Positions 7,984-57,257 of a stretch of 64,000 bases of DNA are shown here, in pieces. Under the pieces are notes generated by a model. That model worked only from the letters and a program-made list of their open reading frames with translations, did not search any database and had not been told where the DNA came from. Positions within the stretch are counted from its first letter, which is position 1; each line of letters begins with the position of its first letter. A program made the translations under genes and the position numbers. Where the stretch lies: the NCBI GenBank assembly GCA_014685065.1, contig GCA_014685065.1_3930.1, one strand, 5' to 3'. The DNA comes from a phage.

Positions 7984-8481
7984 TCAAGCACAATTTGCTT
8001 TCATTACCTTATGGATTCTTTTTTCAGCATCTTCATAAGTTTCTTTAGTAATAAACTTAATTGCTGCAATATTGGCATTGTAGAAGAGTCTGAGCTTCGA
8101 GTCAATCCTTTTTGTCATTACATCGAATTTATGTTGAAGGTTTGCTTCACCATAGACTAGGCCACCTTTTGTGTAGTAGGTTTGGATAATGTAAAAGTCA
8201 AAAAATTCTTTTCCAAAGCTCTCAATATCTTTTTTAATATACTCAGAAGAGGTTTCGTAAGTCATCCAATCACTTTCCTTAGTGACTACCTTCTTCCGAG
8301 TCTTCCCAGCAACTTTTCTTTTGGTCACACTGTTAAGCTGTTTCTTTCCAATATAATATTGTCCAGTCTTCTTACAGTGTACTAAATAGACAAAGCCAAA
8401 ATGTTTAGTGGGGTCAACTTCCCCACATAAAGATACCCAATGACCATAGGTAGGGCAATTGCCAAATCCTTTAATCTTCAT
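7984..8481 (-). CDS. putative GIY-YIG-like nuclease domain protein
   Basis: 165 aa; FVYLVHCKKTGQYYIGKK resembles the GIY-(10-11)-YIG motif; basic C-terminal half. Confidence 0.35.
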   Translation of the reverse strand: MKIKGFGNCPTYGHWVSLCGEVDPTKHFGFVYLVHCKKTGQYYIGKKQLNSVTKRKVAGKTRKKVVTKESDWMTYETSSEYIKKDIESFGKEFFDFYIIQTYYTKGGLVYGEANLQHKFDVMTKRIDSKLRLFYNANIAAIKFITKETYEDAEKRIHKVMKANCA

Positions 8482-52405: not shown

Positions 52406-52663
52406 ATTAAATCTTTTTAGAGAACTTCTAAGAACCTAAGCAACAAGGTTCCACAACAAGCTGTAATAACCTTAGAAGCCCTCTAAAAAGACCTAATTTG
52501 GTCTTTGCATAGTCTTGTTTAATCCGGTGACTAGAACCTTTGGAGAGCTTGATATTATCTCTTCTCCGTGACACCTACTAGGTGCTTTACTGTGCGTGTA
52601 CGACAATACACGAGGGATACCAAAGCAACATCCGAATGAAGCTTGGCTTTAAATCTTATTAGG
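52406..52663 (-). ncRNA. structured non-coding spacer within the tRNA array (candidate small stable RNA)
   Basis: No ORF and no tRNA; several hairpins (CTTCTAAG...CTTAGAAG 8 bp; AGACC-taattt-GGTCT; CGTGTA-cgacaa-TACACG). Confidence 0.3.
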
Positions 52664-53066: not shown

Positions 53067-53313
53067 ATTAATCTTTAAAGACTCTCTTAGAAAGCCCTTA
53101 AAGATGCCCACCTTATTAATCATACCGTGGGCGAGTACGCCAAATTCTTTGATGAGGGATTGGAAGACCTCACTGGTGTTTAGCCTATCAAGCTACTGCC
53201 AGAAAAACATTGTCGTTTGCATTTATTTTAAATTTGCAAAATAGACGCTACGCAACGAAAACTAAGGTTACTATAAAGTGGTCACATCTCAATGTCAACA
53301 ACTTTATTGAAAT

Positions 53314-53389
53314 TGGTACTGTGAGAAGGATTCGAACCTTCTGCCTTTCGGTTATCAGCCGAATGCACATCCATATGTGCTTTCACAGC
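53314..53389 (-). tRNA. tRNA-Ile (anticodon GAT)
   Basis: Perfect anticodon stem TTCGG/CCGAA, loop CTGATAA. Confidence 0.6.
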
Positions 53390-53868
53390 ATTGTTACCCC
53401 TTCGTGTACCTCTCTGTGGCAATTTGCACACAGTAATACACACTTATCAACTTCAGACTTCATTACCTCTATAGAGAAGTGTTTTTGTCCTACTGTGAAG
53501 TCCTTTGTATTAGGGTCTAAGTGGTGAAACTCTAAAGCCTTTATGCACTTATTGTATCCACAAATTGAGCAACAACCACCTTTGTAATCAACTAAAACCC
53601 TCTTAAGTTTGTCACGAGACTTTTTAACGTGTTGTGACTTCGCTTTCTTTTCTTCATCGGGGTTTTTGTATTGTTTCAGAATACCATTTGAAATACATTC
53701 ATCACAATACTTTCTTGATTTTGGTGTTTGTTTTCCACATGAATGACAAGAGCCTTCTTGTCTTCTTTTTGGATGACTCTTGTTGTTTACCCTTGCAGCA
53801 CAAGAGCGTGAACAATATTTTCCGCCTTTAACGGCTTTGTTGTCACAATCTTTATTAGCACAAAACAT
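53383..53868 (-). CDS. HNH homing endonuclease
   Basis: Trimmed to ATG 53866-53868 (RBS GGTGA) so it does not overlap tRNAs; Cys-rich N-terminal region; C-terminal HNH motif EFHHLDPNTKD...CANCHREVH. Confidence 0.7.
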   Translation of the reverse strand: MFCANKDCDNKAVKGGKYCSRSCAARVNNKSHPKRRQEGSCHSCGKQTPKSRKYCDECISNGILKQYKNPDEEKKAKSQHVKKSRDKLKRVLVDYKGGCCSICGYNKCIKALEFHHLDPNTKDFTVGQKHFSIEVMKSEVDKCVLLCANCHREVHEGVTML

Positions 53869-53884
53869 AATATCACCAACGAAT

Positions 53885-53961
53885 TGGAGGTTCAGATGGG
53901 AATCGAACCCACATTCATAGGGCTTATGAGACCCCTGCATTACCTTATCTGCGACTGAACC
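53885..53961 (-). tRNA. tRNA-Met (anticodon CAT)
   Basis: Acceptor GGTTCAG/CTGAACC perfect; anticodon stem GGGGT/GCCCT, loop CTCATAA. Confidence 0.55.
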
Positions 53962-53965
53962 ATAT

Positions 53966-54041
53966 TGGTAGAAGTGGAGGGATTCGAACCCATCGCCTGT
54001 CAGATTAAAAGTCTGCCGCATCACCATTCTGCTACACTTCC
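53966..54041 (-). tRNA. tRNA-Lys (anticodon TTT)
   Basis: Anticodon loop CTTTTAA; T-arm ATGGGTTCGAATCCCTC. Confidence 0.5.
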
Positions 54042-54045
54042 ATTA

Positions 54046-54181
54046 AAATTATCTTTGTAGATAAGCTATCCAGACTTGCTTAAGGTCTGTAGCGATGTGC
54101 CTTGTTGGGTTTAAATCTAGAATTTACCCTTTCACTCTTTGTGGTCGCATACTCACAGGTAAGCTTAATAACTTATCTACA
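54046..54181. repeat. 19-bp perfect inverted repeat flanking a ~98-nt spacer
   Basis: aattatctttgtagataag (54046-54064) is the exact reverse complement of cttatctacaaagataatt (54163-54181); inner CAGAC...GTCTG hairpin. Confidence 0.55.
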
Positions 54182-54241
54182 AAGATAATTACCAGACCGT
54201 TGTTTATCATCTTAAGTGCTACCATTACACCAACTCGACAT

Positions 54242-54266
54242 CTGCCGAGTGAAGGAATCGAACCTT
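54242..54266 (-). other. tRNA 3'-half-like fragment (T-arm plus acceptor 3' strand only)
   Basis: Canonical GAAGGTTCGATTCCTTC T-arm followed by ACTCGGC-A, but no complementary 5' acceptor strand found within 120 nt. Confidence 0.3.
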
Positions 54267-54497
54267 CGCCTTTTCTTTACCGGAGAAATAGATTGTTTAA
54301 GTTTTGCTGTAAACGGTCTTCTGTAAATTTGTTGAGCCAGACCAAGTTTTAAATTTTCAAAATTAAATTGGCTTGAAATTTCATACATTCTTGCTGTATT
54401 TGGTCTTCTGCTCCTTTAAAGAATACTCGTAAGAACCCTTTAAGGGAGGGGCTAAATAGCCCTCTCAAAACATCATCTTGAAATACTTATTATAATT

Positions 54498-54574
54498 TGG
54501 CGGTTACGAAGGGATTTGAACCCTCATCATCTCCCGTGACAGGGGAGTATTTTAACCAGTTAAACTACATAACC
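54498..54574 (-). tRNA. tRNA-Asp (anticodon GTC)
   Basis: Perfect anticodon stem CTCCC/GGGAG, loop CTGTCAC; D-stem GTTT/AAAT. Confidence 0.6.
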
Positions 54575-54580
54575 TTTATT

Positions 54581-54668
54581 TGGTGTGCCGTGTAGGAGTC
54601 GAACCTACCGAGTCTCAATGACAAGGGATTTACAGTCCCCACCGCTACCATCTACGGGATAACGACAC
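54581..54668 (-). tRNA. tRNA-Tyr (anticodon GTA), class II
   Basis: 88 nt; anticodon stem GGGGA/TCCCT, loop CTGTAAA; long variable arm. Confidence 0.5.
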
Positions 54669-54737
54669 ATTTAATTTCTATTCAGGCTAAGGACTTGCAC
54701 CTTACAAATCGGTGAGCAATCGCTTCTCTCCTAAATT

Positions 54738-54814
54738 TGGCGGTTAGTCAGGGATTCGAACCCTGTGCCATTCGCTTAACAGGCGACCGCACATACCTTA
54801 TGTGCTTCCTAACC
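54738..54814 (-). tRNA. tRNA-Asn (anticodon GTT)
   Basis: Anticodon loop CTGTTAA; T-arm CAGGGTTCGAATCCCTG. Confidence 0.5.
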
Positions 54815-54891
54815 TTAATACATTGCCAGACCGTGTTTTTTCTTTTATCCGCAAAAAGTATTTTGTTGCTGAATACGGTCTTCTGCAAAAT

Positions 54892-54968
54892 TGGAGGCGG
54901 GTGCAGGAGTCGAACCTGCCGATACCATGCTAATGAGACATGTGAGACGCCCTTTCTCTATACCCGCA
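54892..54968 (-). tRNA. tRNA with anticodon CAT (Met or Ile2), tentative
   Basis: Anticodon stem CATGT/GCATG, loop CTCATTA (position 37 is T, unusual); 1-72 mismatch in acceptor. Confidence 0.4.
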
Positions 54969-55059
54969 ATTCTTAATGACCAGACCAAATCTCTTCTTTG
55001 TCCGATTTACCTTCAGATGAATAAGATTAAGTTTGCTGTAATTGGTCTTCTGTCAAAAC

Positions 55060-55137
55060 TGGCGTTCCAGAAGGGATTTGAACCCTCAAATATCCACTTT
55101 GAAAGAGTGGTGACTTTACCATTTTGTCTACTGGAAC
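55060..55137 (-). tRNA. tRNA-Glu (anticodon TTC)
   Basis: Perfect acceptor GTTCCAG/CTGGAAC and anticodon stem CCACT/AGTGG, loop CTTTCAA. Confidence 0.6.
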
Positions 55138-55144
55138 ATTAATT

Positions 55145-55224
55145 TGGTCTCCGTTGAAGGATTTGAACCCTCGACCCCTTGCTCCCAAAGCAAGTGCTGC
55201 TAAACCAAACTGAGCTAAACGGAG
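55145..55224 (-). tRNA. tRNA-Pro (anticodon TGG)
   Basis: Perfect acceptor CTCCGTT/AACGGAG and anticodon stem CTTGC/GCAAG, loop TTTGGGA with G37. Confidence 0.6.
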
Positions 55225-55342
55225 ATAAACTTTTCAAACTCTATGTAACCACTTTAACATTATTTTTTAGTGGTTGTCAAGAACTTTTTTAAAATATTTT
55301 TCAGTATCTTAGAAAAGCTCTCATTTCGTTTCTATGTAGAAC

Positions 55343-55371
55343 ATATTAAAGGGTATCAAACACATTGTCAA
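55343..55371 (-). promoter_or_regulatory. sigma70-like promoter reading into the tRNA array
   Basis: On the minus strand: TTGACA - 17 nt - TAATAT; lies inside a GGGTAT...ATACCC hairpin just downstream of the vWA gene stop. Confidence 0.55.
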
Positions 55372-55389
55372 TACCCTTTTTAAAACTTT

Positions 55390-56805
55390 TTACCAGATGT
55401 AACGGTCAATCATTACTGCTTTGAGCATTACGCTGATTGGGTCAAACTTCTCACCACCAAGCAGAGCTTTTAAAGTGGCTGGAGAGAACCCTGATACCAT
55501 TGCTACACCATTATCCTTAACAGATACTTCGCAAGTACCATTACGGTTTGCTAAGTACCAGAATACCAGTTGTGGCATTTTGTATCCAGCTTTTTTGTAC
55601 TTACTACGAATCGCTTCAAAGTTTGTACGACCATTAGCTCCATCAACCTGATTGAACTCCATATCAGAGAAGATAATAAGCTTACTTGGCATATCTTTCT
55701 GAGTCAAGTTGTTTCTCTTACCTGTTTCAAGAATGCGGTCAAAAGCTGCTTGTAAGTTAGTTGAGCCATATTCAACGTGTCGCATCACCTGACGATGACG
55801 GTTTCGTAAATCACCACTCAGTTCGATGAAGTGAGGGTTTGTCGAATAAACCATCAACTCATTCTTAAAGCAACCTGTATTGCGTTCTGCTACATACAAG
55901 GCAAGTGATACACCAATATCCAGAGCAGTAATGGAGCCAAAATTCACCCAAGACATTGAACTTGATACATCAGACATACACAAGATGTTTTCACCTTCTG
56001 CCATCCAGTTTGGTAGTGCTTTCCACTGCTCATTAGCAACATCTGCATTACCATACTTGACAGATTTAATCACATCGTATGGGTAAACAGCACCAGCGTT
56101 AATCTTAGTCTCACCTTTTGATAAGGACTCGATGTAAGCTTTGTAACGCTCTCCATCTTTACGGTTAAACAGTTTTTGGTAACGTGCAGCAGCAAGTGAA
56201 GGAATCTTACTGTAGTCAATCTTACCAAACTCATTAGCAGAGATTTTTTGCTCAACTGTATCAGATAGTGCAGACAACAGTGTGCGATACTCTTTCTCAC
56301 TCAAGTTTGCAAACTTGCAGAAACGTTTTACAAACTGTTTGTGACGTGGTTTTACTCGTGGTAACCACTTAGCTGCTAAACCTGCTGTTGCAGGGTCTAG
56401 TAAAGCTGCTTCTAAATGTTTGAAGGCATCTGTCTCGAAACGAGTACCTACAAAGATTTTGAAGTCATCAAAGCGACCAAGCTCTGCAATCTTATCCATA
56501 ATGCGAAGAACCTGCGTAGGCTCTAAAACTTTATCTTCAATCGCTTGAAGTAAAACAGTTCGGAAAGCTTTACGCTCACCCATACCTTCTCGTACATCTC
56601 GCATATGCAGTAAAATACGAACTGCAACATCAACATCCTCATGCAAAGCTTTGTAGAACAAGTCTGGTAAGATTTCTACATTGCTACGGCTGGAACCAGC
56701 AGCTTTGTAAAAGTCCACAAGAGCAGACATTGATGAAGTATGGTTTACAGCACCATTTTCAGTTCGACCTGCATGAAGGTGCGCATGTTTAAATAATTCG
56801 CTCAT
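55390..56805 (-). CDS. von Willebrand factor A (vWA) domain protein, possibly Ro60/TROVE-like
   Basis: 471 aa; C-terminal region has a MIDAS-like DxSxS motif (MSDVSSSMS) and later LIIFSDMEF; N-terminal half is helical. Adjacent to the tRNA array. Confidence 0.5.
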   Translation of the reverse strand: MSELFKHAHLHAGRTENGAVNHTSSMSALVDFYKAAGSSRSNVEILPDLFYKALHEDVDVAVRILLHMRDVREGMGERKAFRTVLLQAIEDKVLEPTQVLRIMDKIAELGRFDDFKIFVGTRFETDAFKHLEAALLDPATAGLAAKWLPRVKPRHKQFVKRFCKFANLSEKEYRTLLSALSDTVEQKISANEFGKIDYSKIPSLAAARYQKLFNRKDGERYKAYIESLSKGETKINAGAVYPYDVIKSVKYGNADVANEQWKALPNWMAEGENILCMSDVSSSMSWVNFGSITALDIGVSLALYVAERNTGCFKNELMVYSTNPHFIELSGDLRNRHRQVMRHVEYGSTNLQAAFDRILETGKRNNLTQKDMPSKLIIFSDMEFNQVDGANGRTNFEAIRSKYKKAGYKMPQLVFWYLANRNGTCEVSVKDNGVAMVSGFSPATLKALLGGEKFDPISVMLKAVMIDRYIW

Positions 56806-56885: not shown

Positions 56886-57257
56886 TTATTTTTTGAGGGT
56901 TGCAACAGCAGAGAACGTTGGTTTGTTATCTGTCTGAGACTGACCGCCGTTATCAGGGGTCTTCTTAGTGTCTGCTGCAATTGCTTTCATCTCACCTGCT
57001 GAGTGAGTCATGATAGTTTTACCGACCTCAATCATACTCTTGATGGTTACGTCATCTGTGTTTAACCCGAACTCTGCAAGCTTAGCCGCGTCCCTTGTAA
57101 CAATCGCCTCAAACAGCTTTGCAGCGAACTCAGCAGAATTATCAATGGTCAGTTGAGCTTTTACGAGTGAGCTTTTGTTACGAGAGCCTTTTGGTCTTCC
57201 AGATGGGTTTCCAGACTGGCCTTTTTTAAACTGGCCTTTGTTTGTTCTGTTTTTCAT
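56886..57257 (-). CDS. small basic protein with AT-hook-like GRP motif
   Basis: 123 aa; N-terminus KGQFKKGQSGNPSGRPKGSRNK. Confidence 0.45.
   Translation of the reverse strand: MKNRTNKGQFKKGQSGNPSGRPKGSRNKSSLVKAQLTIDNSAEFAAKLFEAIVTRDAAKLAEFGLNTDDVTIKSMIEVGKTIMTHSAGEMKAIAADTKKTPDNGGQSQTDNKPTFSAVATLKK

Follow-up and report, generated by a model that had tools for sequence, protein, structure and literature searches.

A conserved structured RNA closed by a long helix directly upstream of tRNA-Lys(UUU) in Felix O1-like phages

The inverted repeat and its setting in the tRNA cluster

The DNA analysed here (the window, 64 kb in full) belongs to a Felixounavirus and is, by BLAST, 97-99% identical to many Felix O1-like phages of E. 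coli and Salmonella; phages of this group are classic in typing and therapy. A 26-gene tRNA cluster occupies its minus strand from 49.7 to 55.2 kb, and an inverted repeat, referred to below together with the sequence it encloses as the element, is embedded in this cluster. The features that surround it are as follows.

53966..54041, minus strand: tRNA-Lys(UUU), in every case the next gene 3' of the element
54043..54191, minus strand: the whole structured RNA, ~149 nt, in which helix P1 encloses P2, P3 and P4 (covariance model R1, consensus folds)
54191..54325, minus strand: putative YrlA-like tRNA-mimic Y RNA (architecture compared with Chen et al. 2014)
54335..54413, minus strand: module M1, with stem AGAAGACCAAA / UUGGUCUGG and motif UACAGCAA (repeat family D4)
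54822..54887, minus strand: module M3, with an M1-type stem and motif UUCAGCAA, between tRNA-Met and tRNA-Asn (repeat comparison)
54975..55055, minus strand: module M4, with an M1-type stem and motif UACAGCAA, between tRNA-Glu and tRNA-Met (repeat comparison)
55251..55371, minus strand: two candidate sigma-70-like promoters upstream of the tRNA/non-coding RNA cluster, which they would drive (consensus matches only)
55390..56805, minus strand: gene of a 471-aa protein, predicted to be Ro60-like (TROVE ring plus vWA; Pfam DUF2828 and DUF7788)

Besides the Ro60-like gene, which lies 1.2 kb from the element, the ORFs scanned within ~3 kb comprise an HNH gene and a DUF5681 gene, and the remainder of this interval consists of tRNA genes. 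A reverse-transcriptase gene, which a retron msr/msd would have at its side, is not among these ORFs. The HNH homing-endonuclease ORF is listed at 53383-54027 (minus strand) and there overruns into tRNA-Met and tRNA-Lys; the real gene spans about 53400-53870, between tRNA-Ile and tRNA-Met. REP7, wV8 and other phages lack it and have just 2 nt between these two tRNAs. Farther along the cluster, weak Rfam matches to tmRNA and permuted tmRNA, which reach at most 31 bits (E about 0.002) and stay under the gathering score, fall at 53067-53256 (minus strand), between tRNA-Ile and tRNA-Arg(UCU), and recur consistently across phages (L006, L007, L009).

The perfect arms of the repeat are 19 nt long and occupy 54047-54065 and 54172-54190. 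The original prediction had recognised such a perfect 19-bp repeat, but its left arm (given as 54046-54064) was 1 nt off and its right arm (54163-54181) 9 nt off. If one T·G position is admitted, the arms grow to 23 nt (54047-54069 and 54168-54190) and enclose 98 nt; at the RNA level, 24 pairs join 54047-54070 with 54167-54190. When inverted repeats of 16 nt or more are sought within 400 nt, the 64-kb window yields just two, the longer of which is this one, and the longest perfect repeat in 40 mononucleotide shuffles of the window measured 12-16 nt. The repeat is thus far beyond chance, as had been supposed. The folding z-score of the region is -6.1 on the minus strand and -5.6 on the plus strand, with 0 of 200 shuffles equally stable. 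Two further details of the prediction also held: the enclosed CAGAC/GTCTG hairpin is present at 54071-54089, and the repeat does sit between tRNA-Lys(UUU) and a tRNA-like piece, the latter corresponding to the T arm of the YrlA-like mimic.

A conserved minus-strand RNA closed by a 24-bp helix

To follow the repeat through its relatives, the interval from tRNA-Asp to tRNA-Lys was aligned for Felixounavirus, Suspvirus and Mooglevirus genomes (21 distinct sequences). The helices discussed below are located in the window as follows.

54167..54190, minus strand: 5' arm of P1, RNA AAUUAUCUUUGUAGAUAAGUUAUU, the right arm of the repeat; 24 pairs in the window, 22 Watson-Crick and 2 G·U
54047..54070, minus strand: 3' arm of P1, RNA GAUAGCUUAUCUACAAAGAUAAUU, the left arm of the repeat; compensatory changes
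54140..54157, minus strand: tentative P2 hairpin, UGUGAGU-AUGCG-ACCACA (RNAalifold on type A plus L100/L107)
54107..54129, minus strand: P3 hairpin, GGGUAAAU-UCUAG-AUUUAAACCC; pairs 73-75/81-83 paired in 100% of cells
54071..54089, minus strand: P4 hairpin, CAGAC-CUUAAGCAA-GUCUG; covarying stem, 9-nt loop

Across the 21 sequences P1 is paired in 98% of cells, with at most one unpaired position per sequence, against 27-45% for control structures slid by 1-3 columns. Four of its pairs change on both sides (UA to CG, CG to UA, CG to GC and GC to UG), and among these close relatives one base pair has been gained or lost on both arms together. The DNA symmetry in relatives drops to 3-5 mismatches, with the minus-strand RNA helix left nearly intact: the 2-4 non-Watson-Crick positions per sequence are almost all G·U in minus-strand RNA, and would be A·C in plus-strand RNA. 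That the mismatches are G·U on one RNA strand argues for selection on the RNA and not on the duplex DNA. Covariance model R1, built from this close-relative alignment, gives the minus strand of the window 132.6 bits (E 6e-28) and the plus strand 34.8 bits. The conserved RNA is the predicted minus-strand transcript.

Consensus folds, a check that had been proposed along with the prediction, show P1 enclosing P2, P3 and P4. The repeat is therefore the 24-bp closing stem of an undescribed, conserved structured RNA of ~150 nt directly upstream of tRNA-Lys(UUU), with its 3' end 1-5 nt before the tRNA in the window. Of the candidates put forward earlier, the stable small RNA fits this picture, the repeat being the covariation-supported closing helix of a conserved minus-strand RNA whose stability is presumed. 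Rfam 15 returned no match on the element at E up to 10 for the window and up to 5 for four type-B relatives (see below), and the long-stem element is described neither in the Bas63 preprint nor in the Felix O1 genome paper.

The element is present in 246 of 253 related phage genomes, with one copy in the window and one in nearly every record; in the BLAST comparison, which had likewise been proposed as a check on its presence as a unit, it is never missing alone. The only genome without it is that of the Salmonella phage FG1m (L108), in which a deletion of ~0.8 kb also takes the flanking tRNAs. This deletion (L108 2426-2578) joins tRNA-Asn to tRNA-Lys sequence and removes tRNA-Tyr, tRNA-Asp, module M1, the YrlA-like RNA, the long-stem RNA and tRNA-Lys(UUU). 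Since FG1m is viable, the whole block is dispensable for propagation.

The interior exists in two versions, type A (that of the window, in ~190 phage records) and type B (in 60), which have P1, the P3 loop and P4 in common. Type A also occurs in the more distant contigs L100 and L107, indicating that both versions are old. The P3 block AUUCUAGAUU, with its pentaloop UCUAG, is found in either type. P4 abuts the P1 3' arm with zero spacer; its stem reads CAGAC, CAGACC, CAAACC, CAGUC, GUUC or AAAGUC in different lineages, and its 9-nt loop, of consensus CYUWAGCAA, is kept or nearly so in most of them. In type B the hairpin is CAGACC-CUUUAGCAA-GGUCUG. The P2 pairs 35/52 and 37/50 change on both sides relative to L100/L107, and an alternative GCGA/UCGC pairing may tentatively take the place of this hairpin.

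Three other readings of the sequence were considered and rejected. A hammerhead-like reading of the type-B interior (CCGAUGA...GAC) misfits the core as judged by eye, and the short interior reading frame MRPQRVKG*, considered as a small peptide or a tmRNA-like tag, is not conserved, since EC6 has it frameshifted and type B lacks it. An 85-aa antisense ORF at 54095-54352 (plus strand), a 'hypothetical protein' in the annotations of wV8 and Felix O1, runs across the structured RNAs; it is open in type-A phages only, is broken in type-B, Suspvirus and Mooglevirus genomes and has no Pfam match, and is hence probably spurious.

A more distant set comprised Yersinia phage P778 together with eight metagenomic contigs, selected for Ro60-like proteins that share 52-63% identity with that of the window. 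In P778 and six of these metagenomic Felix-like contigs, for which this identity is 53-63%, the best R1 match (E 1e-11 to 6e-3) always ends 3-8 nt before tRNA-Lys(UUU). Of the 12 elements folded, 11 have a P1 of 22-25 pairs, 2-4 of them G·U, with no more than one mismatch; the exception is L101, whose 12 bp are continued by a further 7-bp helix. In a comparison of seven lineages, with arm identities of 32-82%, pairing holds in 148 of 154 cells, and both-side changes are seen at 18 of 22 positions. The arm sequence has thus been largely replaced with pairing kept, the opposite of the loss of inverted symmetry in homologous phages by which the original prediction was to be judged wrong. P4 is found in the same place in most of these lineages.

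The gene downstream of the element is tRNA-Lys(UUU) in every case, and the upstream neighbour varies, being the YrlA-like RNA, tRNA-Ala or another tRNA. In three distant lineages tRNA-Ala lies between the YrlA-like RNA and the element, by which we dismissed the idea that the two form one composite RNA. R1 found no significant match outside Felix-like genomes among 75 loci of diverse phages with a Ro60-like (DUF2828) gene, so that the co-occurrence of the element with the Ro60-like gene is inseparable from shared ancestry.

The Ro60-like gene, the YrlA-like RNA and related stem modules

The protein encoded at 55390-56805 carries the PHROG label 'RNA-binding protein' and shares 31-34% identity with the 'Ro-like RNA binding proteins' of mycobacteriophages. 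The ten best PDB matches of its AlphaFold model (pLDDT 86) are all Ro60, from Thermus phage phiLo, Xenopus, human and Deinococcus, and the DUF2828/DUF7788 protein is accordingly predicted to have a Ro60-like fold. Its gene is the homologue of gp130 of Bas63, another Felixounavirus; a preprint reports gp130 as Ro60-like and as countering the ppl defence, and suggests that some annotated tRNAs may be Y RNAs. A DUF5681 gene at 56886-57257 is the conserved upstream partner of the Ro60-like gene in all Felix-like contigs.

YrlA RNAs are defined by the order T arm, closed acceptor stem-loop and D arm, and have been reported from mycobacteriophages with a Ro60 orthologue of their own (Chen et al. 2014, PMC4201824). 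The RNA at 54191-54325 has a T arm at 54252-54268, a closed acceptor hairpin at 54233-54250 and a D arm at 54216-54230, together with a closing stem (CAGAAGACCGUU / AACGGUCUGG) and a V arm, and from the match of this architecture to the published description it appears to be YrlA-like. Three covarying versions of its acceptor hairpin exist, the T and D arms hardly change beyond variants at single bases, and conservation does not extend to the 'anticodon' loop. The variable 'anticodon' loop and the closed acceptor end argue for a YrlA-like mimic and led us to reject a permuted, functional tRNA-Thr(GGU) at this position. The equivalent of 54191-54325 is annotated in REP7 as a 131-nt 'tRNA-Thr(GGT)' and elsewhere not at all or under 'hypothetical protein'. 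The comparison would correct several such records, which have a 'hypothetical protein' or an intron-containing 'tRNA-Thr' across the region.

The YrlA-like closing stem shares the sequence AGAAGACC-N3-UWCAGCAA ... GGUCUGG with M1, M3 and M4 (four stems), and these three modules are candidates for additional Y-like RNAs. P4, particularly in its type-B form, reads like a minimal copy of the same stem motif. L016 and Yersinia phage P778 have analogous modules with other stem sequences and the same UNCAGCAA motif. Upstream of M1, at 54414-54468 (minus strand), lie two strongly conserved hairpins, GAGAGGGCUAUUUAGCCCCUC and CCUUAAAGGG...CUUUAAAGG.

Possible roles of the long-stem RNA

By analogy, the element works most like a Y RNA or like the stable RNAs of the phage T4 tRNA cluster. 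The latter, known as 'species 1' and 'species 2' (rnaC and rnaD), are structured non-tRNA molecules of ~120-140 nt that are co-transcribed and co-processed with the phage tRNAs. The element resembles them by description, as a non-tRNA structured RNA in a phage tRNA cluster; the T4 cluster is not known to have a Ro60-like gene beside it.

The likeness to Y RNAs extends over several features. As with YrlA-type Y RNAs (PMC4201824) and Yrl1/Yrl2 of phiLo (PMC12135203), a Ro60-like gene lies close by, the ~1.2 kb observed here falling within the about 4 kb in which a YrlA-type RNA is expected to have a Ro60 orthologue. The 5' and 3' ends of Y RNAs pair into a stem around a large interior, as P1 does; the element is one among several small RNAs at its locus, as at YrlA/Yrl loci, and its ~150 nt are similar to the ~147 nt of M. 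smegmatis YrlA. However, the tRNA-like domain of YrlA is missing from the element, the T arm, acceptor hairpin and D arm being those of the adjoining RNA at 54191-54325: no T-loop/D-loop motif was found in 54043-54191, nor any tRNA match there at E up to 10. The conserved sequence is the hairpin loop CYUWAGCAA, unlike the GNCGAAN0-1G of YrlA, a motif of the 5' strand that contacts Ro60. Neither GNCGAAN0-1G nor CGAA occurs in the window-type element; type B has the near-match GCCGAUG, and GCCGAAG is seen in Sf19 only. Moreover, P1 is an uninterrupted 24-bp helix whereas these YrlA/Yrl RNAs have a bulged one, and the putative partner protein belongs to the DUF2828 branch and not to canonical Pfam TROVE. 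With the YrlA-defining features missing and no Rfam family matching, we do not file the element as a YrlA member.

We nevertheless favour the reading that the element is a processed, stable, Y-like non-coding RNA of a phage Ro60/Y-RNA system, and give it an even chance of being correct. In this model the element would be transcribed within a polycistronic tRNA/Y-RNA precursor starting just downstream of the Ro60-like gene, and its 3' end would be made by the RNase P cut at the 5' end of tRNA-Lys(UUU), 5 nt on. The product would be a long exonuclease-resistant helix with a short 3' tail, in which P1 may confer stability and hold the multi-branched interior of P2, P3 and P4, with P4 stacking directly on P1. 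The P4 loop CYUWAGCAA would be a miniature of the stem-plus-UWCAGCAA motif of the YrlA-like basal stem and the three sister modules. Lacking a tRNA-like domain, the element might then join the Ro60-like ribonucleoprotein as an extra Y-like RNA, with P4, placed analogously to the Ro-binding motif of YrlA, as a putative protein-recognition element. Binding of the Ro60-like protein through the UWCAGCAA/P4 motif is suggested by position and analogy; the repeat, the conserved RNA fold, its strand, the synteny with tRNA-Lys(UUU) and the Ro60-like/YrlA-like context are observed. Counting against a Y-like RNA are the element's lack of a T or D arm, the empty Rfam search and the viability of FG1m without the block.

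The YrlA-like mimic, the sister stem modules and the long-stem RNA are candidate RNA partners of the Ro60-like protein, and the questions of which RNAs a phage Ro60-like protein uses, and for what purpose, become directly testable. The long-stem RNA has unusually strong comparative support and yet stands outside every described family.

A second reading, which we hold to be possible but appreciably less probable, has the element act in cis, on the processing or the stability of the tRNA-Lys(UUU) precursor. Here P1 would part the upstream RNAs from tRNA-Lys(UUU), serving as a putative host RNase III cleavage site or as a block to 3' exonucleases and thereby setting tRNA maturation or level, and the interior would have no function in trans. 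RNase III needs about two helical turns (22-25 bp), and P1 is held at just this length while its sequence turns over; typical substrates consist of ~20-22 bp or more of mostly uninterrupted double-stranded RNA, and P1 falls in this range. The RNase III stems of the 16S/23S rRNA operon and the T7 and lambda sites are likewise stems of at least 22 bp that flank structured RNA in a polycistronic precursor, but the element encloses only ~100 nt, with conserved motifs of its own. The 1981 work of Pragai and Apirion is said to have RNase III taking part in the processing of the phage T4 tRNA cluster, which would be a precedent. The element lies 3-8 nt 5' of tRNA-Lys(UUU) whatever stands upstream, and with tRNA-Ala interposed in three lineages this tRNA is the sole invariant neighbour, so that a cis role for tRNA-Lys fits equally well. 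Furthermore, a second long stem with a base similar to P1 (UCUUUGUAGAU) is found directly 5' of tRNA-Leu(UAG) in the window and in L100, suggesting that long stems before particular tRNAs are a recurring device. On the other hand, a cis role leaves the conserved ~100-nt interior unexplained (the covarying P4 and its loop, the P3 block and P2), and most other tRNAs of the cluster have no such stem. The Y-like RNA and the cis-acting RNase III or stability element are compatible with each other.

The constant association with tRNA-Lys(UUU) could also be read as protection. In its more elaborate form, which we think improbable, the element would be an RNA guard travelling with tRNA-Lys(UUU), an anticodon-arm look-alike (P4) on a rigid 24-bp rod that during infection is loaded onto the Ro60-like anti-defence protein, or acts together with it, and absorbs or misdirects host nucleases attacking tRNA-Lys or other RNAs; if true, phages would encode a previously unrecognised class of RNA decoys, linked to Ro60. 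In a plainer form, to which we give still less credence, P4 would imitate the anticodon arm and titrate a host anticodon nuclease or modification enzyme. A decoy role would explain the invariant adjacency to tRNA-Lys(UUU), and the P4 loop (CUUUAGCAA or CUUAAGCAA) does resemble CUUUUAA: it starts with C, usually CUU, and ends in AA, like anticodon-loop positions 32-34 and 37-38, and the stem CAGAC of the window resembles the anticodon stem GCAGA. Yet this loop has 9 nt and not 7, the AGCAA motif is also present in modules unrelated to tRNA-Lys, and the P4 stem does not track the tRNA-Lys anticodon stem (AAAGUC versus ACUGU in P778, CAGACC versus CCUGA in L104). As the two stems do not co-vary across lineages, we rejected P4 as a copy of the tRNA-Lys anticodon arm.

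An element acting at the DNA level, whether as the ends of a small MITE-like insertion, as a site of homing or recombination, or as a palindrome or cruciform bound by a protein, is very unlikely. The 19-bp symmetry is perfect in the window and the HNH homing-endonuclease gene lies ~100 nt away, but REP7 and wV8, which lack this gene, carry the same repeat, and the mismatches of relatives are almost all G·U on one RNA strand. The several copies, presence/absence polymorphism and target-site duplication of MITEs are not seen: each genome has a single copy, the unit is never lost except within the larger deletion of FG1m, and no direct repeats flank the inverted repeat at the locus. The other two of the earlier candidates, a site of recombination or homing and the ends of a small insertion, are therefore not supported. 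Least credible of all is an intrinsic terminator or attenuator inside the cluster, for although UUUUAAU does follow a long minus-strand hairpin, this hairpin has an A/U-rich stem base instead of a G+C-rich one, the U run is 3-4 nt instead of a U tract, a scan found no terminator-like site on the minus strand here, and twenty more tRNA genes follow downstream on the same strand with no promoter-like site in the scanned 53850-55500 except those upstream of the cluster.

The second long stem spans 52406-52497 (minus strand; L100 7407-7494), measures ~23-27 bp and has a z-score of about -5; the resemblance of its base to P1 is closest in L100. The inner loop of this stem, UUGUUGCU, complements the module motif AGCAACAA exactly and the P4 loop over 6-7 nt. 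In L101, L102, L104 and L105, within the ~110 nt 5' of tRNA-Leu(UAG), the long hairpin of the Felix O1 group is replaced by YrlB-like modules, in which a closing stem goes together with a CAGCAA/CUGCAAA motif and a hairpin resembling a T arm. Yersinia phage P778 (L099) contains T-arm-containing, tRNA-like sequences at 8010-8165 and ~8300-8400 that ARAGORN did not call, one of which resembles a tRNA with an insertion of ~80 nt.
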